Shown here: one piece after another, positions 11,946-48,012 of the stretch
Position numbering within the stretch: the first letter of the stretch is position 1
Layout: each line of letters starts with the position of its first letter
From: an uncultured Pirellulales bacterium
Lineage (GTDB): Bacteria; Planctomycetota; Phycisphaerae; Sedimentisphaerales; Anaerobacaceae
Assembly (NCBI GenBank): GCA_964439135.1
Contig: CAYTNN010000001.1
Location: 3,252 to 67,251, forward strand
Direction of reading: 5' to 3'
Length of the DNA stretch: 64,000 nucleotides
The notes under the pieces: model-generated
What the model saw: only the letters and a program-made list of their open reading frames with translations
The model's database searches: none
Told to the model about the DNA's origin: nothing
Translations under genes and position numbers: made by a program

Positions 11946-12578
11946 TTACGCAGCGGAGATATGAGGAATCCTTCCTTTCTTAGCAGGCGGATATAAGCAG
12001 CAATAATACGAATAAGTATAAGTCTCGTTTGTATTTCTCTTGGGATAGACTTCTTGTGTGGACTCTTCTTTCTTCCGTGATATGCCGAGGGCTCTGCTTA
12101 TTTGTCTCATAATTGTTGGTTGGAACTTGTCCTGTAAGATCAGAATTCTTCCGTTACGACTGAAAAGACTCTCGACGTTTAATAGGCCGTTTACGAGATC
12201 CTTGAAGCTTGTATCTTCATTCAGGGGTGACACAACATAAGATAGTGTTGCAATATCATAAGAGCCCAGTTTGCCTTTTATCCTTCGAAGCTGATTCATG
12301 TTTTTGGGGAAAGCTTTTTCGAGTCTGAGTATATGACCGGGTGTGATCTGGCTATTTTGCCTTGTACAAATGCGAAAGTAATCGGTAAGCAATTGTTGGC
12401 CGGTGCCCAGACAGAAGCCGGAGATATCATTTAGAGTATAATCTACTATTACCTTGTTTCCTGACCTATATCCCTCTTCTCTGAGATGTTTCAGAACGCA
12501 GGCAAGCATGTCTGTGATTGCCAAAGAAGTCACTGCAGGGCCTGAACCAATATCGAGAATTCGTAAGTGTCTATCCAT
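11946..12578 (-). CDS. class I SAM-dependent methyltransferase domain (downstream part of a gene split by an in-frame TAA)
   Basis: LRILDIGSGPAVTSL is methyltransferase motif I (DxGxGxG-like). The ATG at 12578 lies 18 nt downstream of, and in frame with, the TAA that ends ORF 12597-12932. Confidence 0.55.
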   Translation of the reverse strand: MDRHLRILDIGSGPAVTSLAITDMLACVLKHLREEGYRSGNKVIVDYTLNDISGFCLGTGQQLLTDYFRICTRQNSQITPGHILRLEKAFPKNMNQLRRIKGKLGSYDIATLSYVVSPLNEDTSFKDLVNGLLNVESLFSRNGRILILQDKFQPTIMRQISRALGISRKKEESTQEVYPKRNTNETYTYSYYCCLYPPAKKGRIPHISAA

Positions 12579-12596
12579 GATAGTTTCAAGAAAGTC

Positions 12597-12932
12597 TTAA
12601 GAGATCATATAGTCCAACAGGCTGTTTTGGGTTTGAAGATAGTGCCTGACGAGAAATTTGACTAAGAAGGCTCTCATGCTTGCAGGGCTTTGCGGATAGC
12701 ATGTTTCATCTTCTGAGACTTTTTTGTTAGGCAAGCGGGATATATGATATCTCAAAACCGATTTCATAACATCGGTTAATTGCCATATCCCGTCCGGGCA
12801 AAGATCTTTTAACACAAGGTTCTTGAGTGTTTTGTTCATGAGAAATATTAACTCCGAAATTATGCCTTTGCTTTTTTTATGCAGTGACAGACGACATGTA
12901 TTTGGACTTTTTTCGAGCTTAAAAGGTGTCAT
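12597..12932 (-). CDS. upstream (N-terminal) part of the split methyltransferase-like gene
   Basis: 111-aa ORF in the same frame as 11946-12578. Overlaps the preceding phage ORF by 14 nt, placing it in the same operon. Confidence 0.45.
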   Translation of the reverse strand: MTPFKLEKSPNTCRLSLHKKSKGIISELIFLMNKTLKNLVLKDLCPDGIWQLTDVMKSVLRYHISRLPNKKVSEDETCYPQSPASMRAFLVKFLVRHYLQTQNSLLDYMIS

Positions 12933-13200
12933 CTGCTATGTTGGTTTTACTTCTCGACTTTTCAACTGCCTGCAGGCGGTATTCGTGAGAGATGCTTTTG
13001 GTCCAGAGCAATTCGAGTTTCCGCTCGATACTGTTTTGCGATTGCAGCAGCATACTCACATCTCTCTGCAATATATCGAGCTGTCGCTGCAGATTGAACC
13101 AACTGCCGACGATAAGCGACGCCAGCAGTACGAGCTGAACGATCACCGAGAGATTGATCTGCCGGTTTAATCGCCAACCTTTTGTATTTTTTGGAGTCAT
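12919..13200 (-). CDS. single-pass membrane / coiled-coil protein (holin- or spanin-like, speculative)
   Basis: 93 aa with one TM helix (INLSVIVQLVLLASLIVGSWF) followed by heptad-like QRQLDILQRDVSMLLQSQNSIERKLELL. It is the last gene of the structural operon. Confidence 0.45.
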   Translation of the reverse strand: MTPKNTKGWRLNRQINLSVIVQLVLLASLIVGSWFNLQRQLDILQRDVSMLLQSQNSIERKLELLWTKSISHEYRLQAVEKSRSKTNIADDTF

Positions 13201-13241
13201 AATTTACCCCGGTCTCGATAGCATGGGCCTTATAGTGTCAG

Positions 13242-13619
13242 TTAAGGTTTTACATGGAAGACGTTTTTGTCGCCGACTCTGGCCATCACGGCGTATGTCC
13301 CGGCGGGCAGGGCTCCGGTCTGGGTGAACGATTCGGCCAGGTTTATCGCCTTTGTCTGCTGGCCGATCTCGGCCGGCTCCGAGCCGGCGTCGTTTATTAC
13401 CACGGCCACGACGTTATAGACGTTGTAGGATGAGTTGCTCTTGACCTTCACGGCCCATGCAGCAGCTCGTGCTCCGGGAGAAGTGACAATAGCGGTCTCG
13501 CCGGTTCCTTGAGAACCGGCCCGGCACAGCCGATCCAGCACCTGTTGACGATTGATAGTGTTTGCCGCGTTGCTCATATACATCAGCTCCTTTGTCGAAC
13601 GATTTTCAAATTCGTGCAT
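13242..13619 (-). CDS. phage hypothetical protein
   Basis: 125-aa ORF overlapping the upstream tail-like gene by 37 nt. Ends in TAA. Confidence 0.5.
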   Translation of the reverse strand: MHEFENRSTKELMYMSNAANTINRQQVLDRLCRAGSQGTGETAIVTSPGARAAAWAVKVKSNSSYNVYNVVAVVINDAGSEPAEIGQQTKAINLAESFTQTGALPAGTYAVMARVGDKNVFHVKP

Positions 13620-15412
13620 TGCTTTTCAAAATCCATCTGCACTCTTACAATCCGGCTTATACTGCAGTTGTCGCTTCGGCAGGCTAAAAGGTCCCTGCTT
13701 TCGGGGCTTGTGCTCACAATGTCACCGAGGCGGTAATCGAGCATCAGGTTCGGTGTCTGGATATTGAAGGTCTCGATTACCTCGGACGATGTCACCGCCG
13801 TCCGACGAACAAATTCATACAAAGCGACTGAATCATCCGCCTCATCGGGCTTGCCGAACATTTGACTGGTTGCTTCGGTGAGGATGCTCTGGTCCGAGAC
13901 TTTGCGATACTTGAACTGCCTGGGCAGCGTTATGACATGCTCGACGACCGGAGCTGTTGAATTGACCGGACCATTGACGGCCACCGCGGTCAACCGCTCA
14001 TCGCTTACGACCGAAGCGGTGATTCGGAATCTCAGGGATCCTTGCAGTGCCGCGGCCCAGGTCTCCATATCGAGCCGGTCACTGCTGAGCCACACGCCGC
14101 ATTCGTCGAGCAAGATATTGAACGCATGAAGGTACTGCCACCAGCCCTGGCCGCCATTGTACGAGACCTGCAGAAAATAGCCGAGTGAATGTCCCTGAAC
14201 ATCGGTAGTCAGAGCCGGCCGGAAACGCCTTCGCCGATGAACGAAATTGCCGCTTTGGAAGATTTGTGAAAAGTCAAACACATCTGACTGATTGTAAGGA
14301 GGCCCACTGTATTGGCCCGCTTCGTTCAGGCACCATTTGCGATAGACGTCTTTGGTCATGCAGAAATTCGGATTTGTCGAGGGCGAGAAGTTGTCATAGT
14401 TGTTCTGTTCGAGGCCGGCGTCCCATGCCTTGATTAGCTCGAAGGTCGCTTCATAGATTTTGAAGTCGCCCTGGCCGATATATTTGTGCGTGATCGGCCA
14501 GAACTTTTTCCTGCTGTGCATCTGTGCGATATTGCTCTTCGAGATGCTGAGCTGCTGACCGGGCGGCTGACAATTCAGCTCAACGACTCTGCCTGTTCCG
14601 GCTCTGTAGAATACAATCGCCTGGTCCGGCCCGTTGGTTGCCAGTCGCGGGACGAACTTGAACTTCAGGCCTATCCGTTCGCAGCAGCGGTGCAGGGCCT
14701 CTGCGAGATTCAGTCCCGTGACATCAAGGTCTCGGACGATTTGATTTTCCGTCAGGGCTTGCAATCGACTGAAGCTCGGCGTTTTTAGTTGCCCTGCCGG
14801 CGTGTATTCGCAGAGCAGATAATCAATCACTTCGGCATAAGTCCAGAGCCTGACTTGCATGGATTCGCCGCAAAAGACTGTGTAACTCTTGCCGTCGAGA
14901 TCGATCGCTGTCTGATTGGCGTTACCTTTGCTGTCAGGATTAAATACTGTATCGAGACCGGCCAGGAATATGCTGGAACCGTCTGTTTTTGCAAGCCGCT
15001 GGCCATATACTGAAAGTCGCTTCAGATTCACGCTGAAGTCTCTGGCAATGATTTCCAGCTTCTCGCCACCGGTTGTTCGTTTTGTCTCGATGCTTTCTAT
15101 CTGCCCGTTGAAGATCGGCAGGCCAAAGACCGCTGAGCCGCACAAATCGGCATTATAATATTGCCGGATGCAGACTGTCTTTCCTGCTGCAAATTCATTT
15201 ACAAGATCTTCGGTGGCTTTTACATCGGCTCCGGTGTGTGCTGCAGGATTGTAGGCTAATTTAGCCAAGCCGAACTCCGGCCAGCCGCAGCGAATAATTT
15301 CAATCACTTCGAGAGTCGGACACAGTGTGCCGTCAATTAGGATAGAGACGTACGCAGCTGGTAGTGACAGTCGCGTTTCCTCTGATTGGAAAAAATCTAT
15401 TCTGTTGGACAT
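13583..15412 (-). CDS. phage tail/baseplate-like structural protein
   Basis: 609 aa, the largest protein of the virion operon, located distal to the capsid genes. No motif recognised, so the function is positional only. Confidence 0.5.
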   Translation of the reverse strand: MSNRIDFFQSEETRLSLPAAYVSILIDGTLCPTLEVIEIIRCGWPEFGLAKLAYNPAAHTGADVKATEDLVNEFAAGKTVCIRQYYNADLCGSAVFGLPIFNGQIESIETKRTTGGEKLEIIARDFSVNLKRLSVYGQRLAKTDGSSIFLAGLDTVFNPDSKGNANQTAIDLDGKSYTVFCGESMQVRLWTYAEVIDYLLCEYTPAGQLKTPSFSRLQALTENQIVRDLDVTGLNLAEALHRCCERIGLKFKFVPRLATNGPDQAIVFYRAGTGRVVELNCQPPGQQLSISKSNIAQMHSRKKFWPITHKYIGQGDFKIYEATFELIKAWDAGLEQNNYDNFSPSTNPNFCMTKDVYRKWCLNEAGQYSGPPYNQSDVFDFSQIFQSGNFVHRRRRFRPALTTDVQGHSLGYFLQVSYNGGQGWWQYLHAFNILLDECGVWLSSDRLDMETWAAALQGSLRFRITASVVSDERLTAVAVNGPVNSTAPVVEHVITLPRQFKYRKVSDQSILTEATSQMFGKPDEADDSVALYEFVRRTAVTSSEVIETFNIQTPNLMLDYRLGDIVSTSPESRDLLACRSDNCSISRIVRVQMDFEKQCTNLKIVRQRS

Positions 15413-15441
15413 AGCTCATTTCTCGTTTTTGAGTCAATGTG

Positions 15442-16959
15442 TTAAATCGTCTCAACCTGCAGTATATTGATCGCATCCGGTCCGGTACCGTTAAGTTCGA
15501 TGGCCATGTGGGCCGACGAACTGTTCTGGATGCCATCGGCATTTTCCGCCCTGATAGCGAACAGGTATCTGCCCGGTTCGAGCGGGTCACTTTCGTAGCT
15601 ATAAAACTTCTGGCCCTTGTAGCTAATCTCAGCCAGAGGATTTTCATGGTCGATTTGCCCGGTCCTGCTGTCATGATATATATTAAAACATGCCGACTGA
15701 GACTCTTGTTCGAGCGGGCAATAGAACCAGGTCAGCCGAACCTGATCGGCGCCCACTTGCTCGACCCTGGCAGCGAAAATTTTATTCGGCAGCGGCTTAT
15801 CCAGCTCGCCTTCGGCATCGAGTGATACCTTTGCCGCGGCAGCCAATGTAAGTTCCTGATAGCCGCAGTGATTGTATCGCCGAAAGACGTAGAAGTATGT
15901 CGAACTACTTGAGTGTAGAAGGTAATTGGGCGGTGAGATATCGCTGGCATTCTGTTCGGTGACAGTCAGGATGGTCGCAAAGTCTATCTGTTCCATGGCG
16001 CCGCCGCGATATAGCACCGAGCAGCCGGCAATGCGGGCCCAGAACCAACCAAGACCTAAGGTTGTTCCCAGCTTAAAAGCGTTGGCGGTCATTCCATTGA
16101 ACAGGGCGTCTCTGAGCCAATTCAGCTCGATGTGCGGCGTGCTGCCCATTGAGGTCAACGTCGCGAATCCCGCTGATGTTGCACTGACAGATCCAGCAAC
16201 GGAAACAGTCGCTTCGGAGGCATGGATCGACGCCGGGCTGATTGGCCTTGCGAACATTGCAAAAGGCTCGTGATAGAGCCATCTTACTTCTTCGGCACTC
16301 AACATACGATTGTAGATAAAGACGTACTCTATCTTGCCGTTCCAGCAGTAATAGTAATCGTCGTTTTCATAGGTCCCTCCGATACCCACGGGCTGAGAAT
16401 CGTTGATAAGGTTCAGATTGCCAGAGCTTGTAGATTCGCTGGCTTCCTGGACACCATTGACATATAGCTTGCCGTTGCCTGCACGCCAGATGCCTGCAAC
16501 GTGCACATATTCACTTCCATTTGTTGCATGAGAAGACGTTGAGTTGATGATACATTCTGTTCCGTCGGTATAAACCAGCCATTTGAACCTTCCACCGTTG
16601 TAGCCTGTAAGTTTGCAAGGTCTTACAAAAGCGCTGCGGGCGAAGATGGTATTTAGCTGGTTGGCACTTTGATTGACTGATGCTACGACACTTACTTCGT
16701 TGGTGGTGTCCAATCCAAATTTGTCGGTTCCGCAATCGATACATCGCTCGGTGCTGAATTCCAGGCATGAGCCGTGCTTAGCCGGTTTCCATGCCGGCGA
16801 GGCTGTGCTGTAATGGAAGCTGCCGTTATTGCGGCGGGGACCGCAATCGGCGACCATTTCGCCGGTCGCTTCGTTCATCAGCCAGCATCCCGCTAATCCC
16901 CTGGCGAGCGGATGGGTCCAGTTTATTTGTATCGCCCTGATTGGTTTAAACAGTGGCAT
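15442..16959 (-). CDS. phage tail fibre/receptor-binding-like protein with LamG/concanavalin-like domain
   Basis: 505 aa. The N-terminal segment (GLAGCWLMNEATGEMVADCG...NGSFHYS...HGSCLEFS...VHVAGIWRAGNGKLYVNGV) resembles the LamG-type lectin domains common in phage tail proteins. Confidence 0.55.
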   Translation of the reverse strand: MPLFKPIRAIQINWTHPLARGLAGCWLMNEATGEMVADCGPRRNNGSFHYSTASPAWKPAKHGSCLEFSTERCIDCGTDKFGLDTTNEVSVVASVNQSANQLNTIFARSAFVRPCKLTGYNGGRFKWLVYTDGTECIINSTSSHATNGSEYVHVAGIWRAGNGKLYVNGVQEASESTSSGNLNLINDSQPVGIGGTYENDDYYYCWNGKIEYVFIYNRMLSAEEVRWLYHEPFAMFARPISPASIHASEATVSVAGSVSATSAGFATLTSMGSTPHIELNWLRDALFNGMTANAFKLGTTLGLGWFWARIAGCSVLYRGGAMEQIDFATILTVTEQNASDISPPNYLLHSSSSTYFYVFRRYNHCGYQELTLAAAAKVSLDAEGELDKPLPNKIFAARVEQVGADQVRLTWFYCPLEQESQSACFNIYHDSRTGQIDHENPLAEISYKGQKFYSYESDPLEPGRYLFAIRAENADGIQNSSSAHMAIELNGTGPDAINILQVETI

Positions 16960-17281
16960 CTAATGTCACCCCGTAGAACTTGTAGGTAAAGTTGTATTTG
17001 TTGTTGTAGTCTACCTTGGTGTTTTGCCAGTCAGCTCGAATTGCATCGGCTATCTGGGCTTGTGTCTGGCCGGCGAGCACCACGATGCTTCGTGATACTT
17101 CAACCAGCGAGCCGGCAGCCAGGGCATCAATCTCGGCCTGCTGAAGCTGTGCCGCGATTGCGCTCTCCGGCGTCGGCACAATTCCGCCGACCGGCGTGTC
17201 GATGGGGATGTGATAGAACAGCTCGGCCTTGCCCTTGCCGGATTCGGTCCTATTGATCCTTCCTATGTGTATATCGGCCAT
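16946..17281 (-). CDS. phage structural-operon hypothetical protein
   Basis: 111-aa ORF whose end overlaps the next gene by 14 nt. Confidence 0.5.
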   Translation of the reverse strand: MADIHIGRINRTESGKGKAELFYHIPIDTPVGGIVPTPESAIAAQLQQAEIDALAAGSLVEVSRSIVVLAGQTQAQIADAIRADWQNTKVDYNNKYNFTYKFYGVTLDATV

Positions 17282-17291
17282 GTTTGCCTCC

Positions 17292-17699
17292 TTATGTTGA
17301 CTGATAGTTCCAGCACTGGACGTACGCTCTGACGTTGTGACTGTCGGTCGAACCGGTTTGCTGGATGCCGATCCTGAAATGTGCCAGGTCTCGAACGACG
17401 AAGCTCAACTGCTGCGGATCGACGCTTTTGTCGCCCTGCATTTCCCAGATTGGTGTGTCATCGTAATTTGAGCCGTCCAGTGATCCGTACAATTTGATCT
17501 TAACTTCATCCGTCGGTGTCGCATCGTAGTCGATTTCCACAGTGACGTGAGTGCCTTCGTAGCCGTTGGTTTCCATATCAATGTCGGACGAATAAGATTC
17601 CGTCGTGCCGGACAGCGTGACGTAGCCGTCGCCCGTCCCGATTATCTGAGACTGCGAGGCCCAGTTTCTGTTTATTGTTGCCATTCTAAACTCCTGCAA
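17292..17699 (-). CDS. phage structural-operon hypothetical protein
   Basis: 135-aa ORF with 10-nt spacing to its neighbours. Confidence 0.5.
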   Translation of the reverse strand: MQEFRMATINRNWASQSQIIGTGDGYVTLSGTTESYSSDIDMETNGYEGTHVTVEIDYDATPTDEVKIKLYGSLDGSNYDDTPIWEMQGDKSVDPQQLSFVVRDLAHFRIGIQQTGSTDSHNVRAYVQCWNYQST

Positions 17700-17709
17700 T
17701 TAGCACTGG

Positions 17710-18105
17710 TTAATCTAAGCTTATATCCAGGTCACCCGCTTCGAATCTGGCTGTATCCGAATCGCCGATCGTTTTGGACTGACTCAATATTCCGTGAGCC
17801 AGCATGTTGCCTGCCGTTGCTGCGTCGAACAAAGCGAAGTGAGTTATCGTTCCCCAGCTCCCGGTTGCTTGGTTGAAGGTGATGTAACTGGCATTGTCCA
17901 GAGAACCGTTCGACGCGGTGTTCCAGTCGGAAGCGGATGTTTGCACCCGTGCGTAGGCGTTGCCGCTCGGCTCGACTAATCCTGAACCGTCATCGGTCGG
18001 ATCTGCGGTCGAGAGTCCTACGTAGATTGTCGGCGGCGTATAACTGCCTTTGCAAAAAATGTGATCCAGAATCTTGTTTTCCCAATAATCTGAAAAGCCG
18101 CCCAT
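17710..18105 (-). CDS. phage structural-operon hypothetical protein
   Basis: 131-aa ORF. The N-terminal YWENKILDHIF...IYVGLSTADPTDDG pattern recalls a recurrent small phage virion protein family, but I cannot name it. Confidence 0.5.
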   Translation of the reverse strand: MGGFSDYWENKILDHIFCKGSYTPPTIYVGLSTADPTDDGSGLVEPSGNAYARVQTSASDWNTASNGSLDNASYITFNQATGSWGTITHFALFDAATAGNMLAHGILSQSKTIGDSDTARFEAGDLDISLD

Positions 18106-18133
18106 ATCAAGTCTCCTGAGTTCTCAAGTGTTA

Positions 18134-18589
18134 TTAACCTGGTGTTCTTGTGATCGCCTCGGCAGCGTCCGTCGGCGTATGGGTCAAAAGGACCGTCTGC
18201 CCATCGTCATCGTAGTATTTGATTTCACCGCTGGATTTGTTCTGGATGGCTTTGTTGGCCAGCAATTTGTCAGCGGTCACTGCACCCGTCCCTGACCATA
18301 CGATTTCATCGCTTCCCACAAGTGTGTCACCATTTGCAGGATTCGCCCCGGCCTGCAGAAAAATCTGAACAGAATATCTGCCGGCCTGTATATTCGTGTC
18401 AAAGCTGCCGACGTACCGGCTGCCGCTCTTGTCCGTCAGGCTGATGTCGTAATCGTCTGCGGTACGGCCGCCCGTCCCCCATGCCTCGAAGGCCTGCCCA
18501 GCGATGTACCATACGTTACCGGCGGCGTTACGAACAACGGCGTACAGTGTACTGCCTGATGCGTAGTTTATATGAATTTCGTTTGCCAT
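18134..18589 (-). CDS. phage structural-operon hypothetical protein
   Basis: 151-aa ORF, tightly packed in the operon. Confidence 0.5.
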   Translation of the reverse strand: MANEIHINYASGSTLYAVVRNAAGNVWYIAGQAFEAWGTGGRTADDYDISLTDKSGSRYVGSFDTNIQAGRYSVQIFLQAGANPANGDTLVGSDEIVWSGTGAVTADKLLANKAIQNKSSGEIKYYDDDGQTVLLTHTPTDAAEAITRTPG

Positions 18590-18616
18590 ATCTGATTCCT
18601 CCGCTGCGGATGCTTT

Positions 18617-19405
18617 TTATGCTTCTTCGCTCCAGGTTCCGTTTTTGGCGATGGTGGCCCAGTTGCCGGCCGATTCAGCGATAATCGTTAATGATGCCCC
18701 GATTGTGCCGGCTGATTTGTATTTGTCCGCTGTCTGGCCTGAGTCGTCACGAATTGCCGCCGTGCCCGGATCGATACGTAACTGCTGGGCTGCCTGCACG
18801 GCGAAACTAAACACCGTTCCCGGAGATGCCGAGGCGGGCAGGGTCAGCGTCACCGTCGCAGAAGCGCCAAGGTTTGTGTGCACGCTGCCTGATTCGGCCG
18901 CCGTCAGTGTGTCGTCGGCAGTATGGGCCTCGATGGTTTTCTTTATCCCGCCGGCCCCGTAAGGCATTGCGATGTTGTGCCCGGCCCGGCAGTCGGTGAT
19001 CGAGTCGATGTCACCGCCTGAGGTGCTGACCTGGGCCAGGCGAATGTGAGGTGTCGCTGCCATATCGGGGAAGCTGCTGTATTCATCAGTGACGAGTGTT
19101 CCGGACGAATCCAGGTAGATGTAAATATTTGCTTTATCGTCGGCCAGCGTATTACCCGTCGAGCCCGCGTAGCTGATCAGTACGGTGCCGAGCCAGAACT
19201 TGCCGAGCTTGACTCCCACGTCCAGGTCGCCTTCATCGTAGACTCTCAGGTCGTTCGCACGCCGGGCCGTCAGCAGTAATCGGTACAGCAGCTTTCTAAA
19301 GTGCAGGTAATATGGCGCCGTCCCGGTCGGGATATACTCGACACCGGTCTCGCTGTCGGACTGCATGTTGAGCAGCTCATTGTCGGATGGATAAACTTCA
19401 GCCAT
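18617..19405 (-). CDS. phage structural-operon hypothetical protein
   Basis: 262-aa ORF, tightly packed in the operon. Confidence 0.5.
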   Translation of the reverse strand: MAEVYPSDNELLNMQSDSETGVEYIPTGTAPYYLHFRKLLYRLLLTARRANDLRVYDEGDLDVGVKLGKFWLGTVLISYAGSTGNTLADDKANIYIYLDSSGTLVTDEYSSFPDMAATPHIRLAQVSTSGGDIDSITDCRAGHNIAMPYGAGGIKKTIEAHTADDTLTAAESGSVHTNLGASATVTLTLPASASPGTVFSFAVQAAQQLRIDPGTAAIRDDSGQTADKYKSAGTIGASLTIIAESAGNWATIAKNGTWSEEA

Positions 19406-19429
19406 AACTTTCTCCTTATTCTTTGGAAA

Positions 19430-20242: not shown

Positions 20243-20245
20243 CTG

Positions 20246-20614: not shown

Positions 20615-20632
20615 CTGTCTTCTCTTTGTAAA

Positions 20633-21289: not shown

Positions 21290-21312
21290 TTCTTGTGTCT
21301 CCCTGCGAGGGT

Positions 21313-21339
21313 GGAATCCCGCATATAGCGCGGGATTCC
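21313..21339 (-). other. perfect 10-bp stem-loop between the capsid gene and the next gene
   Basis: GGAATCCCGC (21313-21322), a 7-nt loop, then GCGGGATTCC (21330-21339). Flanking GAGG/CCTC extend the stem. No U-tract follows on the transcribed strand. Confidence 0.5.
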
Positions 21340-21376
21340 CATCCTCGTATGTCCCCCCGATAAATCGGGTAAATGC

Positions 21377-37758: not shown

Positions 37759-37759
37759 A

Positions 37760-39909: not shown

Positions 39910-40347
39910 ATGACCAAAGCAAAAGCATTAAGTGCCAAACAGCTTGCCGTGATTGAGGATTTATTTGAAGGCCGGCTGGAAGAGCAGGCAATTCTGGAAA
40001 AACACAGTCTCAGCAGAAAGCTCTTCGACAAGTGGCTGGCCGATGAGGCCTTCACCAGCCACCTCGATTGGCGCACGGCCTGGGAATACCGCAGGAGCGA
40101 GTTTATGCTGGCCCACTACGCCCGGGTGGCTGTGTCAAATCTCGTGCAGCTCACAGATCCTGATAACAAACAACCGGAAACCGCTCGCAAGGCCTGCCTC
40201 GACATAATCACAATGCGCGCCAACCGTTCAGCCGGCACCAACGTGACGCCGGGCGAAAATCCCGCATCGCCCCCCGAATCCCCGCCATTCTCACCCGAAA
40301 CCGCCGGAAAAATCTTAGCCGTCTTAGCAGAAGAAAAAAGCGATTAG
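39910..40347 (+). CDS. HTH protein, terminase-small-subunit-like (uncertain)
   Basis: The N-terminal LSAKQLAVIEDLFEGRLEEQAILEKHSLSRKLFDKWL resembles the helix-turn-helix start of Terminase_2-type small subunits. Assignment is weak. Confidence 0.35.
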   Translation: MTKAKALSAKQLAVIEDLFEGRLEEQAILEKHSLSRKLFDKWLADEAFTSHLDWRTAWEYRRSEFMLAHYARVAVSNLVQLTDPDNKQPETARKACLDIITMRANRSAGTNVTPGENPASPPESPPFSPETAGKILAVLAEEKSD

Positions 40348-40509: not shown

Positions 40510-41919
40510 ATGAGCATGATATGCAGCAATGACTACACACGGCGGGGATTTTTAAAGACTATGGGGGCTGGGGCGGCCGTTCTGGCTTCGGCGGGGAATA
40601 TAATGGCTGGAGAGCAGAAGGCGGCGGGTAAGCCGAATATTTTGATGATTCTGGTCGATGATTTAGGTTACGGGGATTTGTCGAGCTATGGGGCGAAAGA
40701 TTTGAAGACGCCGCATATCGACAGGCTCATGACGGCCGGGATACGGTTCGATAATTTCTACGCCAACTGCCCGGTCTGCTCGCCGACGAGGGCGGCACTA
40801 CTCAGCGGGCGCTATCCGGACATGGCCGGAGTGCCGGGAGTTATTCGCACGCATATCACCAATAGCTGGGGCCACCTCGCTCCGTATGCAGAGTTGCTGC
40901 CGAAGCTGTTAAAGCCGGCCGGGTATCACACCGCCATCGTCGGCAAGTGGCATCTCGGCCTGGACTCGCCCAATACGCCGAACGAGCGCAGCTTCGACCA
41001 CTTCCACGGCTTTCTCGGCGATATGATGGACGATTACTATAACCACCGGCGTCACGGCAATAATTACATGCGGCTGAACGGCAACCAAATCGACCCCGAA
41101 GGCCACGCCACCGACCTGTTCACGCAGTGGTCGATCGACTACATCAGCGGCCGTGCCAAATCGGACCGGCCGTTCTTTTTATACCTGGCCTACAATGCTC
41201 CGCATACTCCGATTCAGCCGCCGGATGACAGGCTCGACCGAGTGAAGAAACGCGAGCCCGGCATAGATAACAAGCGAGCCAAACTCGTAGCCCTGATCGA
41301 ACAACTCGACGACGGAATCGGTAAGGTCATTGCGGCGTTAAAAGACGCCGGAGTAAGTGACAACACGCTGGTGATTTTCACATCCGACAACGGCGGCCAG
41401 CTCGGTGTCGGAGCCAGCAACGGCCCACTGCGAGCCGGCAAGCAGGACATGTACGAGGGCGGGATTCGCGAGCCGATGTGTGCGGTCTGGCCGGGAAAGA
41501 TTCAGCCGGGCACCCGCAGCGAGCGTGTCGCGCTTACGATGGACCTGTACCCGACCATCTGCGAAGCGGCCGGCGCGAAAATAGCTCACCAGATTGACGG
41601 GCGCAGCATCCTGCCGACGCTGCTGGGTAAATCGCAGCCGGCCGAGGACCGCTTTTTATTCTGGGTCCGTCGCGAGGGCGGCGGCTACGGCGGACGGGCA
41701 TATTACGCTGCACGGTACGGCGACTACAAGCTCGTGCAAAACAATCCTTTCGAGCCGATGGAGCTTTACAATCTCAAAGACGACCCGAAGGAGCAGAAAC
41801 CTCTCGGCAGGAAGAACAAAATGTATCAGAAGCTCTTTAGCGCTCTACGCAACCACATAATTGAGGCCGGAGCAGTACCCTGGCAGAAATACCCGGTCGA
41901 AATAAAGGCGGATCAATAA
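40510..41919 (+). CDS. Cys-type arylsulfatase with Tat signal
   Basis: RRGFLKTMGAGAAVLA is a twin-arginine signal. CPVCSPTRAALLSGR is the sulfatase CxPxR signature. FTSDNGG is also present. Confidence 0.9.
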   Translation: MSMICSNDYTRRGFLKTMGAGAAVLASAGNIMAGEQKAAGKPNILMILVDDLGYGDLSSYGAKDLKTPHIDRLMTAGIRFDNFYANCPVCSPTRAALLSGRYPDMAGVPGVIRTHITNSWGHLAPYAELLPKLLKPAGYHTAIVGKWHLGLDSPNTPNERSFDHFHGFLGDMMDDYYNHRRHGNNYMRLNGNQIDPEGHATDLFTQWSIDYISGRAKSDRPFFLYLAYNAPHTPIQPPDDRLDRVKKREPGIDNKRAKLVALIEQLDDGIGKVIAALKDAGVSDNTLVIFTSDNGGQLGVGASNGPLRAGKQDMYEGGIREPMCAVWPGKIQPGTRSERVALTMDLYPTICEAAGAKIAHQIDGRSILPTLLGKSQPAEDRFLFWVRREGGGYGGRAYYAARYGDYKLVQNNPFEPMELYNLKDDPKEQKPLGRKNKMYQKLFSALRNHIIEAGAVPWQKYPVEIKADQ

Positions 41920-41960
41920 CCGCAAACGCATGAGGTGATAATCACGGAGGCAACGCTGAA

Positions 41961-44900
41961 ATGAGAAAGAAAATCCTGAGCGCATTTATATTTGTGTTTT
42001 TGTTATCGGTGCTGGTTTCTTGTAGCCGGGCGCAGACTGTTTTTATCGAGGCCGAGGGCTTCGCGAACCGTGGCGGCTGGGTAATTGATCAGCAGTTTAT
42101 GGACCAGATGGGCTCGCCGTTTCTGCTGGCTCACGGCCTGGGTATACCGGTCGGCGACGCGGCGACGGCTGTATCGTTTCCGGCAGTGGGCACATACCGC
42201 GTCTGGGTGCGTACGCGCGACTGGGTTGCTCCGTGGAAGGCTCCGGGAGCGCCCGGCAGGTTCCAGCTAATTATCGACAATGAGCCGCTCGATGCCGTAT
42301 TCGGCACAGAAGGGGCCCAGTGGCACTGGCAGAACGGCGGGGTAGTCGCGATCACAAAAAATCAAGTCGTGCTCAAACTGCACGATTTAACAGGCTTCGA
42401 CGGGCGATGCGATGCTATTGTTTTCACGCTGGATATGAACTTTGTTCCGCCGAACGAAGGCGAGCCGATGGCGGCTTTTCGCAGAAGGTCACTCGGCCTG
42501 TCTGAAGTGCCTCAGAACGCAGGCAATTTCGACATGGTAGTAGTTGGAGGTGGGATCGCCGGGACCTGCACGGCGATCTCGGCAGCAAGACTCGGCCTGC
42601 AGGTGGCGCTGATACAGAACCGTCCCGTGCTGGGCGGCAACAACAGCTCGGAGGTTCGCGTCCACTTGAATGGCGAGGTCAATCAACCGCCGTACCCGGC
42701 ACTTGGTGGCGTCGTTAACGAACTCGACACCGGGCTCCAGGGCAACGCCCAGCCAGCCGAGCACTATGACGACCAGCGGAAACTCAAAGTCGTCCAGGCG
42801 GAGGAGAATATCCACCTGTTTCTGAACATGCACGCCTTAAGGGTTGAAAAGCAGGGCGACCGGATTGTAGCGGTTGTCGCCCAGGATATTCAAAAAGGCA
42901 CCATGTCGCGCTTTACCGCTCCGCTGTTTGCGGATTGTTCCGGCGACGGCACGCTCGGATTTCTCGCCGGCGCCGAGTTCCGAATGGGACGTGAAAGCAA
43001 AGAACAGACCGGCGAACCTCTGGCGCCGGAAGAGTCCGACAAAATGACGATGGGCGCATCGGTCCAGTGGTACTCGACTGCAGGCGACAGGCCATCGAGG
43101 TTTCCGGATTGTCCCTGGGCTTTACAGTTTGACGAACAAAGCTGTCACTATCTGATCCGAGGCGACTGGGACTGGGAGACGGGAATGAACCGTGACCAGA
43201 TAACCGAATTCGAGTTCATTCGTGACCACGCCCTTCGCGCCGTCTACGGCAACTGGGCTTATCTGAAGAACAGCAGTCGGGACAGGGCGAAATATGCGGA
43301 CAGTCAGCTCGAATGGGTTGCGTATATTGCCGGCAAGCGCGAATCACGCCGGCTGCTCGGTGACGTCATATTGCAGCAGCAGGACATTCAGCGACGCAGG
43401 AGATTCCCCGATTCGTTTGTCACTTCCACCTGGTCCATCGACCTTCACTATCCGGACCCGAAAAATTCTCAATACTTTCCCGGCGAAGAATTCCGTTCGA
43501 TTGCGAAGTATGCCCAGATAAAGCCCTACCCGATTCCCTACCGCAGCCTGTATTCCCGCAACATCAGCAATCTTATGATGGCCGGACGCTGCATCAGCGT
43601 GACACACGTAGCACTCGGAACCGTCCGCGTAATGCGAACCGGCGGAATGATGGGCGAGCTTATCGGAATGGCAGCGTCACTTTGCACGAAAAACAATACT
43701 ACACCTCGTGGCGTCTATGAGAATCACCTGGCCGAGCTGAAACGGTTGGCCCGAAAAGGTGTCGGAAAGCCCGCTGAGATTGACAAAGATACCTTCCGAC
43801 AGGCCGAAGAGAACGGACGTCTGGCCAATAAAGGATTTATCCACTGCCGGGACTTTGTCAAAGGCTGGCTTCGATATGCCGATAGGAAGACCGGGCTGAT
43901 CCCCAGGAATCTTAGCCGGGACAAAGACATCTGGAATGCTCAGGACAGTGCCGCGGACAATTATCCGTTTATGGTGCTCACCGCGGCCATTATAGACCGC
44001 CCGCTTTTCGACGGCAGGATGCGAAATATGCTGCGCGCTGAAACCATGTTTACATCCCGTATCGGAAGCCTGCCCGATACGTACTCTTTTACCAAGCAGA
44101 ACTTCCATGATTCGAAAGAAAATCTGGGCCGAATAATCTTCGGCTCATCGGAATATGTCAAAGACGGGCTGTTGCCGCTTACCGAATGGCTCGGGCCGAG
44201 TCCATGGTCCGAACGCATGATAAACATTCTCGACGATTTGTGGGAGCGGGCGCCTGTTAAAACAAAATATGGACAAATCGTTTCGGAAAACCAGGAGATT
44301 AACGGCGAGATGCTCCAGACATTGTCCCGTGTTTACTGGATGACCGGCGATAGGAAATATTTACAATGGGCCGTTCGTCTCGGCGATTATTATCTGCTCG
44401 GTGGACATCACCCCACACGCGATGAAGAATCGCTCAGGCTTCGCGATCACGGCTGCGAAATTGTCTCGGGCCTGTGCGAGCTGTACGCGACCGTTAATTT
44501 CGCCATGCCGGCTAAAAAGGGTGCTTATCAAACACCCATTCACGAAATGCTCGATAGCGTTCTCAAATTCGGGACCAACGAGCATGGTCTTTTTTACAAC
44601 GGTATGTATAACAAAACCGGCCGGCACGACAGAGATCTGGCCGACACATGGGGCTATAATCTCAACGGCTTTTATACCGTGTATCTGATAGACAAAACCG
44701 AGGCCTACCGTCAGGCCGTTCAGAAAGCGCTCGGCAACCTGAACGACTACTATAAAAACTATCAGTGGGAAGGCAGCAGCGCCGATGGTTACGCCGATTC
44801 AATCGAAGGCGCGATTAACCTCTACAATCGAGAGCCCGTTGATTCTACTGTGAAGTGGATGGACAGCGAAATCAAAGTGATGTGGGACATGCAACAGCCC

Positions 44901-45305
44901 AACGGCATCATCGAGGGATGGCACGGAGACGGAAACTTCGCACGTACCACAATTATGTACTGCCTCTGGAAGACAAAAGGCCTGACCATCCGTCCCTGGC
45001 GGGAGGATGTGGTTTTCGGAGCTATCCAGGAAGGAGATGGACTAAAAATAAGCATAAGCGCCGACAGAAGTTGGCAGGGAAAGCTGCTCTTTGATACGCC
45101 GCGTCATAAGACGATTATGAATATGCCGCTCGACTGGCCGCGTATCAACCAGTTCCCCGAATGGTTCACCGTAAAGCAGAATAAACGCTACATGGTACGT
45201 GACCTGACTTCCAATACGAGGAAATCCTATACGGCACAACAGTTGGCCGACGGCATAACAATCAGCCTCCAGACCGGCGTTCCGCAGTATTTGATTGTGC
45301 AGTGA
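41961..45305 (+). CDS. large secreted FAD-dependent oxidoreductase-family protein (PF12831-like) with N- and C-terminal extra domains
   Basis: 1114 aa with a signal peptide. FDMVVVGGGIAGTCTAISAARLG is a GxGxxG dinucleotide fold, followed by PVLGGNNSSEVRV. Confidence 0.7.
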   Translation: MRKKILSAFIFVFLLSVLVSCSRAQTVFIEAEGFANRGGWVIDQQFMDQMGSPFLLAHGLGIPVGDAATAVSFPAVGTYRVWVRTRDWVAPWKAPGAPGRFQLIIDNEPLDAVFGTEGAQWHWQNGGVVAITKNQVVLKLHDLTGFDGRCDAIVFTLDMNFVPPNEGEPMAAFRRRSLGLSEVPQNAGNFDMVVVGGGIAGTCTAISAARLGLQVALIQNRPVLGGNNSSEVRVHLNGEVNQPPYPALGGVVNELDTGLQGNAQPAEHYDDQRKLKVVQAEENIHLFLNMHALRVEKQGDRIVAVVAQDIQKGTMSRFTAPLFADCSGDGTLGFLAGAEFRMGRESKEQTGEPLAPEESDKMTMGASVQWYSTAGDRPSRFPDCPWALQFDEQSCHYLIRGDWDWETGMNRDQITEFEFIRDHALRAVYGNWAYLKNSSRDRAKYADSQLEWVAYIAGKRESRRLLGDVILQQQDIQRRRRFPDSFVTSTWSIDLHYPDPKNSQYFPGEEFRSIAKYAQIKPYPIPYRSLYSRNISNLMMAGRCISVTHVALGTVRVMRTGGMMGELIGMAASLCTKNNTTPRGVYENHLAELKRLARKGVGKPAEIDKDTFRQAEENGRLANKGFIHCRDFVKGWLRYADRKTGLIPRNLSRDKDIWNAQDSAADNYPFMVLTAAIIDRPLFDGRMRNMLRAETMFTSRIGSLPDTYSFTKQNFHDSKENLGRIIFGSSEYVKDGLLPLTEWLGPSPWSERMINILDDLWERAPVKTKYGQIVSENQEINGEMLQTLSRVYWMTGDRKYLQWAVRLGDYYLLGGHHPTRDEESLRLRDHGCEIVSGLCELYATVNFAMPAKKGAYQTPIHEMLDSVLKFGTNEHGLFYNGMYNKTGRHDRDLADTWGYNLNGFYTVYLIDKTEAYRQAVQKALGNLNDYYKNYQWEGSSADGYADSIEGAINLYNREPVDSTVKWMDSEIKVMWDMQQPNGIIEGWHGDGNFARTTIMYCLWKTKGLTIRPWREDVVFGAIQEGDGLKISISADRSWQGKLLFDTPRHKTIMNMPLDWPRINQFPEWFTVKQNKRYMVRDLTSNTRKSYTAQQLADGITISLQTGVPQYLIVQ

Positions 45306-45355
45306 TTATTCACAGGAGCGGTTTGCGGGTCGCCAATAAAATAAGGAGAGATCAG

Positions 45356-46432
45356 ATGGACGAGTCAAAAAACACCAAAATTTATGAAGAGCTTGCAGAT
45401 GCACTCAACGCTCTTCCGAACGGTTTTCCGCGGACACCTTCGAATGTCGAGGTACCGATGCTTCAGAAGATTTTCACGCCGGCCGAGGCATCGCTGGCCC
45501 GGCACCTGGGCCGTGAGCTGGAGCCTGTCGATGCAATCGCCAAGCGGGCCGGACTCGACCAGAGACGGGCCGGTGCCGGCCTGATGGCTTTGGCACAGCG
45601 CCGCCTGATATGGTTCAACGGCCGGCCTGATAATCCGCGTTTCAGACTCTCTCCGTTCGTCGTCGGAATATACGAAATGCAGTTGGATAACATGGACTAC
45701 GAGCTGGCTCATCTGATCGAGCATTATATGGCCGACGGCGGAGCGGTCGGAATCATGAGGCCCGACCCGGCCATCCACCGCGTTGTCCCGGCACAGAGCG
45801 CCGTCAAGTCCGAGTGGGTGCTGCCCTACGACGATGTCCGCGAAATTTTGCTGAACGCTAAAACGTTTCGCGTTAATGATTGCGTCTGCCGCAAGCAGCA
45901 GGACCAGCTCGGCCGAAAGTGCGATTTCCCGCTGAAAACGTGCCTGATCTATCATTCGGCTCAGCTTCCGCCTACACCTGATATGATCTCGCGTAATGAA
46001 GCTCTGGCGGTCCTCGACGAAGCGGAGGAAATCGGCCTGGTCCATACGATGAGCAATGTCAGGAATAAGTCGCTATTCATGGGTGATGTCGGCTATATCT
46101 GCAACTGCTGCGGCTGCTGTTGCGGCATACTTCGCGGAATCAACGACTGGGGCATCGAGAATTCCGTCGCTCAGGCAAATTACTATTCCGTCATCGACGC
46201 CGAGCAGTGCACCGCGTGCGGTTTGTGCGAGCAGCGCTGCCAGGTCGGTGCAATCTCTGAACAGGATGGTAGTTTTATTGTAGACACCAGGCGTTGCATC
46301 GGCTGCGGCCTGTGTGTCACCGGTTGCCCGAGCGGCGCTGCAACGCTACAGCCAAAACCCGATGCCGAAATCATCCCTCCGCCTCTGGACCTTGCGGACT
46401 GGGAGCAGCAGCGTATGCAAAACCGCAAGTAG
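45356..46432 (+). CDS. 4Fe-4S dicluster domain protein
   Basis: CTACGLCEQRC and CIGCGLCVTGCP are ferredoxin motifs. There is an extra Cys-rich CNCCGCCCG. ATG at 45356 follows AAGGAGAG. The track start at 45302 is a GTG overlapping the previous stop. Confidence 0.7.
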   Translation: MDESKNTKIYEELADALNALPNGFPRTPSNVEVPMLQKIFTPAEASLARHLGRELEPVDAIAKRAGLDQRRAGAGLMALAQRRLIWFNGRPDNPRFRLSPFVVGIYEMQLDNMDYELAHLIEHYMADGGAVGIMRPDPAIHRVVPAQSAVKSEWVLPYDDVREILLNAKTFRVNDCVCRKQQDQLGRKCDFPLKTCLIYHSAQLPPTPDMISRNEALAVLDEAEEIGLVHTMSNVRNKSLFMGDVGYICNCCGCCCGILRGINDWGIENSVAQANYYSVIDAEQCTACGLCEQRCQVGAISEQDGSFIVDTRRCIGCGLCVTGCPSGAATLQPKPDAEIIPPPLDLADWEQQRMQNRK

Positions 46433-46527
46433 GCGCTGCTATCCACTGCTACAGAAAATTTCTCAAACCGAAGGTGATATTCTTCGTCTTCGACTCAGAA
46501 TGACATTCAATTAAGGGGGGTATCGTC

Positions 46528-48012
46528 ATGACACAACTATCTTTTCCAGCATGTAGTGACATTAAAAGAGTGGCCGGGGTTTACACCGGGCTGCGGCAGA
46601 TTCGGCCGCAGACGAGGCGGGACCTGAAGAATTACGTGAAGGTCTTTCTTGGTATCGACGTGCCGGATAAGAGAATCTGTCCGGAACATCAAAGCCCGAT
46701 GGATTATCTCTGGCATACTTTTCGTGAATCTAAGCACGAACCAAGGGCTGCAAATCACGATTCGATCGTTTGGGCGAATCGTGCTGGCGGTAAGACCGAG
46801 CTTGCAGCCATCGCGACGCTTCTGGATTGCCTCTTTAAGCCGAACTGCCAGGTCAGGATTCTGGGCGGCTCGGGCGAGCAGGCCGGCAGGATGTATGAAT
46901 ATCTGACCGGCTTTCTGCATCACGGCTACGAGCAATCTCTTGCCGGGCCTGTCCGCAAGACTAAATGTCACTTTGTCAACGGTTCAGCGGTCGAGGTCCT
47001 GACGCAGTCTGCAACCAGCGTCCGGGGCCAGCACGTTCAAAAGCTTCGTTGCGATGAGCTGGAGCTGTTTGATGAGGACGTTTTCGCCGCGGCTAAGTTC
47101 ACCACGCAGAGCACGCCGGAAATTACCGCCGGCATGGAACTGATAAGCACGATGCACCGGCCTTACGGCCTGATGCACGAGGTCGTGACATCGGCTCCGG
47201 AGTTCGGCACGCCGGTCTTCAAATGGTGCGTGTGGGAAGTGATAGAAAAGTGCGTCGGCAGAAGCTGCTCGCAATGTCCCTTGTCGGAAGACTGCCGGGG
47301 CAAAGCGAAGGTGGCGAACGGCTATCTGAAAATCGACGATTGCATTACACAGATGCGCCGGTCCAGCAGGGCGTGCTGGGAAGCCGAGATGCTCTGCACG
47401 CGGCCGTCACGGCAGAACGTTGTCTTCGATGAGTTCGACCCGGCCGTGCACGTTGGAACAGTCGATTATGATCCGAATCTTCCGCTGTACCGGGCGCTTG
47501 ATTTCGGATTCGTCAATCCGTTTGTATGCCTGTGGATTCAGGTTGACGATGCCGGCGTTGTGCGTGTGATTGATGAGTACGTTCGCAGCAGGGCGACCAT
47601 CGACGTGCACGCGGTTGAAATGAAGAGCCGCACGCCGGTCGCGGAAGAAAAAGTGACGGCGACGTTTTGCGATCCGGCGGGTAAAAGCGTTAACGATGTC
47701 ACCGGCACCAGCGCTGTCCGCGAGCTGCGGGCGTTGGGAATTGCAGTGCGATTCAAGCGCAGCGGCATCCTGGAAGGAATCGAGTTGATCCGCAGGGCAA
47801 TCCGCTGCGGCGATAGGAAAAGTAGTCTGATAGTCTCGCCGAGATGCCCCCGCCTTATTGAGGCAATGGAATGCTATCATTACCCGGAATCCGCCGCCCC
47901 ACGCGAGCTCCCGCAAAAAGACGGCCTCTACGACCACCCCATCGACGCCCTGCGATACTTCTTCATTAATCATAATCGCATTGAGGGCAAGATGATTACA
48001 CGACTTTACTGA
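46528..48012 (+). CDS. phage terminase large subunit
   Basis: 494 aa. WANRAGGKTELAA (Walker A-like), LRCDELELFD (Walker B), a C-terminal nuclease-like FCDPAG, and YDHPIDALRYF. RBS AAGGGGGG. Confidence 0.8.
   Translation: MTQLSFPACSDIKRVAGVYTGLRQIRPQTRRDLKNYVKVFLGIDVPDKRICPEHQSPMDYLWHTFRESKHEPRAANHDSIVWANRAGGKTELAAIATLLDCLFKPNCQVRILGGSGEQAGRMYEYLTGFLHHGYEQSLAGPVRKTKCHFVNGSAVEVLTQSATSVRGQHVQKLRCDELELFDEDVFAAAKFTTQSTPEITAGMELISTMHRPYGLMHEVVTSAPEFGTPVFKWCVWEVIEKCVGRSCSQCPLSEDCRGKAKVANGYLKIDDCITQMRRSSRACWEAEMLCTRPSRQNVVFDEFDPAVHVGTVDYDPNLPLYRALDFGFVNPFVCLWIQVDDAGVVRVIDEYVRSRATIDVHAVEMKSRTPVAEEKVTATFCDPAGKSVNDVTGTSAVRELRALGIAVRFKRSGILEGIELIRRAIRCGDRKSSLIVSPRCPRLIEAMECYHYPESAAPRELPQKDGLYDHPIDALRYFFINHNRIEGKMITRLY

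Follow-up and report, generated by a model that had tools for sequence, protein, structure and literature searches.

The 64,000-nucleotide stretch analyzed here (hereafter the window; contig CAYTNN010000001.1 of assembly GCA_964439135.1, from an uncultured Pirellulales bacterium) carries two divergent arms of phage-derived genes, a virion operon and a regulator and packaging arm that ends with the large terminase gene TerL. Based on comparisons with relatives, we propose that this is probably a host-fixed, vertically inherited, domesticated particle-producing locus and a candidate new family of gene transfer agents (GTAs). That the locus is domesticated and vertically inherited is held with much more confidence than that it transfers DNA. 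An initial annotation of the window had offered three readings: a functional temperate phage with cargo, a rearranged and decaying prophage, or a domesticated particle-producing locus. The comparative evidence strongly supports the last of these and speaks against the first two. Several structural calls of that annotation hold: Pfam matches confirm an intact virion operon on the minus strand, from the portal gene at 24690 down to 12919; TerL is where it was placed; and the three blocks of non-phage-looking genes between the modules are real by Pfam (Table 1).

To find relatives, we scanned one genome per species of the Genome Taxonomy Database (GTDB) with an alignment of the major capsid protein (MCP), which yielded matches in 406 species-representative genomes. 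We inspected the best 80 of these (83–98% MCP identity; all of them Planctomycetota assembled from metagenomes; 80 different assemblies, including the complete chromosomes CP070806.1, CP070675.1, CP070830.1, and OY970194.1) and compared the proteins of the window with the 80 genome loci by tblastn. The order portal, scaffold, MCP, t218, t122, t270, t262, (fiber cassette), t609, t125, and t93 recurs wherever a contig reaches far enough. The tail end of this module always adjoins the host gene SPL and/or the gene for a 202-aa protein (h202), and the portal side is usually followed by PfkB, with or without GH5, DUF4186, nitroreductase, and AbiE genes. Beyond the PfkB side lies the divergent arm, with the order HTH, ABC1, ABC2, ParB (with DUF1376 in some loci), and TerS-like. 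MCP is full length in 82/82 loci, the scaffold gene sits between portal and MCP in all loci, and at least 90% of the portal length is matched in 65 loci (six others are cut by a contig end and four are partial). Of the 80 genome loci, 66–74 contain t218, t122, t270, and t262. The 53 loci in which no contig end cuts t609 all have it at full length, and t125 and t93 are kept at the module end in 47–49 loci. The conserved module ends at 12919. The initial annotation had begun the element at 11946, and the two genes that this adds, t210 and t111, are accessory, matched in only 8–9 of the 80 loci; t210 carries the SAM-methyltransferase-like motif DIGSGPA. Homologs form more than 120 distinct 90%-identity clusters for MCP (88–100% identity; named sources all Sedimentisphaerales/Planctomycetes metagenome-assembled genomes, MAGs) and more than 120 clusters for TerL (73–94% identity; Planctomycetota). 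For t609, 1100 homologs were found, and those that carry names likewise all come from Planctomycetota MAGs.

In a host-anchored test, which avoids selection by phage genes, metagenome contigs were scanned with an alignment of the host SPL protein. The virion module lies beside SPL in 62 of the 66 loci whose contigs continue for at least 1.2 kb past SPL. In two of the other four, nothing but t210 (with or without t111) is seen up to the contig end; L174 has no match in the 1.9 kb beyond SPL, and the fourth has an inserted island before the contig end. Host genes of the left flank are also syntenic in these loci. The initial annotation had suggested comparing relatives to find an empty site and att repeats; this comparison gave no clear empty site in the 66 SPL-anchored loci. 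Pfam scans of a set of open reading frames (ORFs) that includes all those of at least 200 aa within 11.9–48 kb detected no integrase, no att-like repeats flank the locus (only short direct repeats at chance level), and there is no tRNA at the locus. The region gave no megablast match to GenBank phages, the left flank gave none to Escherichia coli genomes, and the closest MCP of a cultured phage is 32% identical. A search of IMG/VR with a TerL peptide pattern found no match, and the MCP search there returned one contig only, a host fragment. This contig, IMGVR_UViG_3300031673_016560 (L007/L008), is filed as viral and is a piece of host chromosome with the module, SPL, and h202. On its portal side, where the portal match begins at residue 144, it has genes for two radical SAM proteins, DUF6804, and three large ORFs (1010, 417, and 813 aa).

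TerL is far from the portal gene and on the opposite strand, as the initial annotation had pointed out. The placement is correct, and it reflects no rearrangement: the divergent layout is common to all relatives, including the compact locus L081, so the separation of TerL from portal is a native two-operon design. In L081, TerL, TerS, ParB, ABC2, ABC1, and HTH genes lie within 5.7 kb, with the TerS-like match ~0.9 kb from TerL, followed by PfkB and the virion operon; the locus spans ~20.5 kb versus 35 kb in the window. The two arms are likewise adjacent in the compact forms L084 and L085. On a 323-kb contig, MCP and TerL are ~25 kb apart in the same orientation as in the window. We also examined the TerL context in five further genomes (74–88% identity). 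Four of them (L012, L013, L094, and L095) share the series ParB, DNA-binding protein, TerS-like, sulfatase, FAD oxidoreductase (with or without Fer4), and TerL, and the fifth (L096) differs upstream. TerL is followed by an FG-GAP protein gene in 5/5 contexts and by two M14 peptidase genes in 4/5, as in the window; PALP or MscS-ParB genes are also part of this shared host neighborhood. An inversion of 24.7–48.1 kb that would have moved TerL from the portal gene was considered and rejected, because the divergent layout is shared and because the sole long inverted repeat proved to be the regulatory element described below rather than a recombination scar. The initial annotation had also raised the scenario of cargo blocks that are syntenic in relatives lacking the phage genes. 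What we found is the inverse: the phage genes are the conserved backbone, and the cargo varies.

The divergence of the locus follows that of its host neighbors. Identity of the virion proteins to the window tracks SPL identity (Spearman r 0.83–0.93) and PfkB identity (r 0.5–0.7), and pairwise distance matrices of virion and neighboring host genes are correlated (Mantel r 0.54–0.87, p ≤ 0.0005). The ratio of nonsynonymous to synonymous divergence (dN/dS; Nei-Gojobori, seven relatives) is 0.04–0.3 for every virion gene, the same range as in adjacent host genes, and stays there even at dS near 1; it is ~0.05 for MCP and ~0.08 for portal, and 0.10 for TerL. Relative to L009, dS is 0.5–1.2 for the phage-derived genes and 0.8–1.0 for the host neighbors; relative to L012, it is 0.61 for TerL and 0.55–0.86 for host neighbors. 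GC content at third codon positions is 0.636 in virion genes and 0.638 in flanking host genes. The TerL Walker A (ANRAGGKT) and Walker B (LRCDE) motifs and the acidic nuclease residues D325, D382, D469, and D473 are invariant in 13 sequences with 73–88% identity. Altogether, dS equal to that of the neighbors and purifying selection strongly support a vertically inherited and functionally maintained locus, as judged from these gene comparisons.

Among close relatives, dS is mosaic within the module. Relative to L014, it is 0.02 for t609 and the lectin-like protein and 0.20 for MCP; relative to L015, it is 0.03 for t262 and 1.25 for t93. This indicates recent homologous exchange within the module.

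The virion operon comprises 15 genes, transcribed in the order given above. The scaffold match falls under the Pfam cut-off. The four conserved genes between MCP and the fiber cassette, which are head-completion or tail proteins, gave no Pfam, PHROG, or PDB sequence match, and most of the tail proteins have no detectable homolog in PHROGs or PDB. The operon includes no protein of tape-measure or sheath type and its largest products have 609 and 505 aa, so a podovirus-type tail, as called by the initial annotation, is a fair reading. The large tail protein t609 is possibly a hub or nozzle: the top Foldseek matches of an AlphaFold model built from 30 homologs are baseplate-hub proteins, which is a hint only given the poor model (pLDDT 40.6) and TM scores of ≤ 0.14. 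PDB sequence and profile searches with t609, t262, and ABC2 gave no usable match. A hydropathy scan of t93 indicates an N-terminal transmembrane segment plus a coiled coil, making it a possible lysis or membrane protein.

All five genes of the fiber cassette (t151, Gp80, t135, t111b, and the Laminin_G_3 protein) are unmatched between t262 and t609 in ~12 species (L029, L036, L042, L064, L070–L073, L075, L077, L082, and L092), which suggests that the cassette is an exchangeable fiber module.

Table 1. Features of the locus and its surroundings in the window, with the matches or remarks that identify them.
Feature	Coordinates	Strand	Match or remark
Pectate lyase	7485-8648		Host gene, left flank
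h202, 202-aa protein	10141-10749		Beside module tail end
t210 and t111	11946-12932	-	Accessory genes between module and host SPL
Virion operon, 15 genes	12919-24690	-	Pfam matches; podovirus-type
t125 and t93	12919-13619	-	End of module
t609, large conserved tail protein, 609 aa	13583-15412	-	
Variable tail-fiber cassette (t151, Gp80, t135, t111b, Laminin_G_3 protein)	15442-18589	-	
Lectin-like fiber protein, 505 aa	15442-16959	-	Laminin_G_3, 2e-15
Gp80, GP4 podophage fiber I homolog	17710-18105	-	PF23140, 1e-43; PDB 8jou_a, 1e-11
t218, t122, t270, t262	18617-21289	-	Conserved head-completion or tail proteins
MCP, 384 aa, SU10/DUF5309 type	21377-22531	-	SU10_MCP PF17236, 5e-86
Scaffolding protein, 174 aa	22597-23121	-	Phage_scaffold, 1e-6
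Portal protein, 516 aa	23140-24690	-	SPP1_portal, 7e-15
Regulatory element copy 1, 150 bp	24780-24929	-	Ends ~90 nt before portal ATG
Block A: GH5, PfkB, DUF4186, AbiEi/AbiEii, nitroreductase, ADH fragment	25165-31340		Pfam, PHROG
AbiEi/AbiEii pair	28064-30123		Within block A
ADH fragment, 89-aa ORF	31071-31340		Within block A
HTH regulator, 151 aa	31581-32036	+	First gene of arm; two sigma-70 region-4-like HTH units
ABC1, ABC-like ATPase	32080-32730	+	Pfam, PHROG, NCBIfam
ABC2, ABC-like protein	32732 (likely start)-33466	+	Pfam, PHROG, NCBIfam; start codon with ribosome-binding site
ParB_N-domain protein	33478-34104	+	Pfam, PHROG, NCBIfam
Block B: DUF1376, 151-aa ORF, chagasin-dockerin protein (minus), 109-aa ORF, bacterial-type DnaB	34190-39112		
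Chagasin-dockerin protein	35280-36896	-	Within block B
Regulatory element copy 2	37200-37349	+	nhmmer E 1e-33; before 109-aa ORF, DnaB, DNA-binding protein, TerS-like
Repeat-containing DNA-binding protein	39353-39733	+	phrog_323, 6e-18
TerS-like protein	39910-40347	+	phrog_2538 (terminase small subunit), weak, 3e-4
Block C: TAT-signal sulfatase, 1114-aa FAD oxidoreductase, Fer4 protein	40510-46432	+	Pfam; between TerS and TerL
TerL, large terminase, 494 aa	46528-48012	+	Terminase_6C; phrog_2, 3e-17
MscS-ParB_N fusion, 442 aa	56056-57384		Within the shared host neighborhood of TerL

The other arm was called "early and replication" in the initial annotation. It does lie on the plus strand, in the order HTH, ABC1, ABC2, ParB_N, DUF1376, 109-aa ORF, DnaB, DNA-binding protein, TerS-like, block C, and TerL, and it consists mainly of a regulator and packaging-associated genes. 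Its DnaB passes the TIGR00665 cut-off (bacterial replicative helicase), scores below the phage_DnaB cut-off, and is missing from the matching position in several relatives; it is thus bacterial-type and lineage-specific. DUF1376 is present in only some loci, and the minus-strand chagasin-dockerin gene interrupts the arm between DUF1376 and the 109-aa ORF. The HTH regulator matches Sigma70_r4_2, HTH_58, and weakly antiterminator-Q, with TIGR02937 at positions 109–161. Among the 80 genome loci, many of which lie on contigs that stop short of this region, 29 gave a match to it, with ABC1 alongside and portal divergent from it, and the order HTH-ABC1-ABC2-ParB is kept in relatives. The pair of DNA-binding and TerS-like genes lies upstream of the sulfatase/TerL block in L012, L013, L094, and L095. 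A recognized defense system made up of the regulator, ATPase, and ParB genes was considered and rejected, since PADLOC gave only weak mad3 and MTase_II N-terminal matches.

The two arms share a 150-bp element, with one copy ahead of the virion operon and one in the packaging arm. The copies share an identical 42-nt core and form a 154-nt inverted repeat (24779–24932/37197–37350), the region's only long repeat; the repeat arms are on opposite strands, so each copy is oriented alike relative to its own downstream genes. Within the element are two boxes of ~22 nt (consensus TTTCNNNCAAANGCGCAGGTA) that are ~112 bp apart, with conserved A- and T-tracts between them; after the second box comes CCAATTATAG, a potential -10 region. 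Iterated nhmmer searches found the element upstream of portal in ~65 loci, almost always at 150 nt (E 1e-8 to 1e-38), and in both the window and L009 the portal ATG lies ~90 nt past its end. L044, L046, L074, L093, and L095 likewise carry a second copy that faces the TerS side, and in the compact relative L084 the element lies between the divergent HTH and portal genes. RNAalifold gave no consensus structure on either strand, Rfam gave no match, and the leaders from element to portal ATG are variable, so we read the element as a DNA-level promoter/operator, likely that of the particle operon. A structured RNA was rejected on the RNAalifold and Rfam results, and Q-type antitermination was dropped because the leaders are variable and have no conserved terminator and the Phage_antitermQ match is below cut-off. 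We infer that the HTH protein may act on the boxes of the element. Upstream of TerL, no box was found, only a conserved motif close to the ribosome-binding site; TerL may be read through from upstream, as the genes from 37.4 to 48.0 kb are all on the plus strand. In the window, the chagasin-dockerin gene has cut the packaging arm, with the duplicated element now preceding its distal part.

GTAs have been defined as caudoviricete-derived particles that are endogenized, often at several loci, inherited vertically, and that carry random host DNA, in a head too small for all GTA genes, and deliver it; three groups (RcGTA-type, BaGTA, and VSH-1) were evaluated for formal classification (PMC9662315). 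The locus is like GTAs in having caudoviricete-derived head, tail, and terminase genes, no integrase, and parts split by host genes, and in being vertically inherited, with divergence in step with neighboring host genes, purifying selection, and host-like composition. At the level of genes alone, portal, scaffold, SU10-type MCP, Gp80, and TerL encode caudoviricete-derived proteins. Endogenization appears full, with no integrase or att, the same flanks, and modules split by host genes, and co-diversification is vertical with linked neighbor genes as the host reference. We found no RcGTA-type family among the Pfam, PHROGs, and NCBIfam matches. RcGTA has a long non-contractile tail; the locus differs in its SU10-type capsid, its SU10/GP4-type podovirus ancestry, and its lack of a tape-measure-sized protein. 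This ancestry is indicated by the PF17236 match of the capsid and the PF23140 and 8jou_a matches of Gp80 (Table 1), the other virion proteins being unmatched. The locus thus has in common with SU10/GP4 podophages a homologous capsid family, one fiber protein, and a short tail. These podophages are free lytic viruses, whereas the locus appears to have no conserved replication or lysis module. The GP4 capsid is described as T=9 (PMC9698820). A tailocin has tail genes only, whereas this locus keeps capsid, portal, scaffold, and TerL genes under constraint.

Of the other explanations, the one that survives best is a domesticated particle with a function other than transfer, such as a PBSX-like killer, which would package DNA without productive delivery, or a device for kin competition, biofilm, or surface interaction. 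Its support is the evidence from fixation and selection that also underlies the GTA reading, and the exchangeable lectin-like fiber cassette would fit a targeting device. PBSX of Bacillus is a myovirus-like, chromosomally fixed, non-excising, DNA-containing killing particle; it resembles the locus as a fixed and conserved phage-derived locus that does not excise, with no homology between the two and with the locus known from its genes alone. The strong constraint on TerL, the TerS-like protein, and portal means that DNA packaging is evidently needed, which weighs against a non-transfer particle, although the same constraint is also true of PBSX. We regard this explanation as unlikely.

A functional temperate phage, widespread and strictly site-specific beside SPL, with heavy metabolic and defense cargo, would account for the complete virion and packaging sets, the dedicated regulator, and the IMG/VR record that labels a related contig viral. 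That contig has the same host flanks, however. A prophage is expected to have an integrase and att sites and to vary among relatives in presence or insertion site, whereas this locus occupies the same site in nearly all sampled relatives. Our searches found neither an integrase or excisionase nor att repeats, and no conserved module for replication. Its dS equals that of adjacent host genes, its divergence tracks the host, the intermodule genes differ by species at fixed module positions, and no related cultured phage exceeds 32% MCP identity. We therefore consider a temperate phage very improbable. A rearranged, decaying prophage, with TerL parted from portal by inversion or insertions and its genes drifting to pseudogenes, could draw on the insertions between modules, the alcohol dehydrogenase pseudogene fragment nearby, and the truncated copies L061 and L073. 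It is highly unlikely, because core genes keep dN/dS at 0.04–0.3 at dS near 1 and are intact in most loci that cover them, the catalytic residues of TerL are invariant, and no inversion separates the arms. Finally, independent and unrelated phage remnants, for which the splitting of the modules by host-like genes and the empty TerL search in viral contigs might speak, are scarcely credible, as both arms have the same order and orientation in every locus long enough, TerL keeps its distance from MCP on the 323-kb contig, the arms are adjacent in the three compact forms, and they share the 150-bp element and a similar divergence. Taken together, fixation, co-divergence, selection, and composition lead us to exclude, at these levels of confidence, a phage that is mobile or was acquired recently, a remnant in decay, and fragments of unrelated origin.

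Several points weigh against a domesticated, GTA-like locus. We infer particle production, packaged DNA, and transfer from a locus known by its genes alone. The co-divergence tests compared host genes that are physically linked to the element, not a genome-wide species tree. The TerS assignment is weak (phrog_2538, E 3e-4), the ABC-like and ParB_N proteins are labeled by domain match with no role assigned, and protein-family scans found no endolysin. The relatives are all MAGs with inconsistent labels (Sedimentisphaerales, Phycisphaerae, "uncultured Pirellulales," and one "Aegiribacteria"). The compact L081 form, at ~20.5 kb, could fit an ordinary capsid, which bears on the GTA property of a head that cannot hold all of its own genes. 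Loss also occurs, as L061, L073, and L036 look rearranged or truncated. In L061 (CAZZHL010000001.1, 7474–11155), only the regulatory element, portal, scaffold, and MCP are left, with AspRS and histidine kinase genes upstream and unrelated minus-strand genes after MCP; either this copy has been rearranged or has decayed, or the contig is misassembled.

For the domesticated locus, we propose the following history and mechanism. The ancestor would have been a short-tailed phage of the SU10/GP4 type that was anciently endogenized and is no longer mobile, laid out as two divergent operons of ~20 kb in total. The first would have encoded portal, scaffold, capsid, connector and tail proteins, the exchangeable fiber cassette, and the hub-like protein, and the second the sigma-region-4-like regulator, two ABC-like ATPases, the ParB_N protein, TerS-like, and TerL. 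Vertical inheritance in Sedimentisphaerales and related Phycisphaerae would then have been accompanied by lineage-specific insertions of glycoside hydrolase, kinase, sulfatase, oxidoreductase, toxin-antitoxin, and defense genes. Host signals would turn on the HTH regulator, which would act on the boxes, and both operons would fire from boxed promoters; in the window, the second element copy would drive the TerS-side operon. Podovirus-like particles would assemble, and TerS and TerL would package chromosomal DNA in situ. Because no excision is possible, the packaged DNA is proposed to be mostly host DNA. Release of the particles may involve t93 as a membrane or lysis factor, and the particles would bind relatives via the exchangeable lectin-like fibers and deliver DNA in a GTA-like manner.

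In lateral transduction, late-excising prophages of Staphylococcus and Salmonella package in situ into neighboring host DNA. An unexcised element with its own TerS and TerL would likewise package in situ into host DNA; the known cases are functional phages, whereas the element here appears permanently fixed.

The insertions that make up the three cargo blocks differ in age. Block C is an old one with a wide distribution: it is conserved between TerS and TerL in L012, L013, L094, and L095 and missing in L081, with Fer4 confined to the window, L095, and part of L096. The sulfatase and ~1115-aa FAD oxidoreductase genes (with or without Fer4) are always adjacent and directly upstream of TerL, with a spacer of ~100 nt, and may be co-transcribed with it. 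Block B, whose span includes copy 2 of the regulatory element, is lineage-specific, and its genes are not at the matching position in L013, L094, L095, or L081. Block A consists of host and mobile genes outside the machinery and combines long-standing residents (PfkB) with mobile DNA that arrived recently (AbiE); PfkB is often found next to portal, and GH5, DUF4186, nitroreductase, and AbiE come and go by lineage. Palindromic and direct repeats (TTTCCTATATAGGAAA), likely an operator, lie ahead of the AbiEi/AbiEii pair. The pair occurs at the block A site in few relatives and elsewhere in others, which suggests that it is mobile DNA inserted recently. The 89-aa ORF in the same block is the N-terminal fragment of a Zn-dependent alcohol dehydrogenase (ADH); the gene is intact (325 aa) at the matching place in L009 and L010, which makes the fragment a pseudogene from local rearrangement. 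Defense-like inserts are found between modules or between module and SPL in L012 (1919–4819), L013 (2873–4772), and L142 (1383–4444). They include a KAP NTPase with LRR repeats and an AAA_15/SMC_N protein with DUF4276, and in L142, as read by eye from the sequence, a possible nuclease with a dCTP-deaminase-like protein. The locus seems to act as an insertion hotspot.

Both flanks are host genes, with an SPL-like radical SAM protein, pectate lyase, and AI-2E transporter on the left and PALP, two M14 peptidases, and AspRS on the right. The 442-aa protein with an MscS domain fused to a C-terminal ParB_N domain is an unusual combination, which L013 and L094 also have at the matching position. The pectate lyase and the chagasin-family (I42) peptidase-inhibitor protein of block B both carry dockerin type I domains, which are unexpected outside cellulosome-forming Firmicutes.

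The genetic basis is known for only a few of the GTA lineages that were domesticated independently, and none of the three evaluated groups is from Planctomycetota (PMC9662315). Our literature search found no report linking a GTA to Planctomycetota, Phycisphaerae, or Sedimentisphaerales. The locus is also a case in which virus-prediction tools would count a host organelle-like system as a prophage, and one contig is already in IMG/VR. To our knowledge, no GTA with SU10/GP4-type podovirus ancestry is known. The duplicated 150-bp element and the sigma-like regulator make the locus a test case for the co-regulation of a split phage machine. Cultures and viromes could be screened with the MCP motifs MAFTGKAT and T[SG]THHEWL and the box TTTCNNNCAAANGCGCAGGTA. 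A bolder version, which we offer as a rather unlikely conjecture, is that the locus would be the first GTA family of the PVC superphylum, domesticated independently from a podovirus and fixed throughout a clade of order rank. With packaging that begins at a fixed TerS/TerL site in the chromosome, it would preferentially mobilize DNA in and next to itself as a permanent lateral-transduction engine. If true, this would explain why polysaccharide-degradation genes (GH5, sulfatase/oxidoreductase), defense genes, and toxin-antitoxin genes gather between the modules, why dS is mosaic within the module among close relatives, and why a duplicate promoter element that co-regulates the split packaging operon has been retained. 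If the candidate GTA reading is true, a capsid-and-terminase locus fixed in hundreds of species of abundant polysaccharide degraders of anoxic sediments would be a major unrecognized route of gene exchange or particle interaction.

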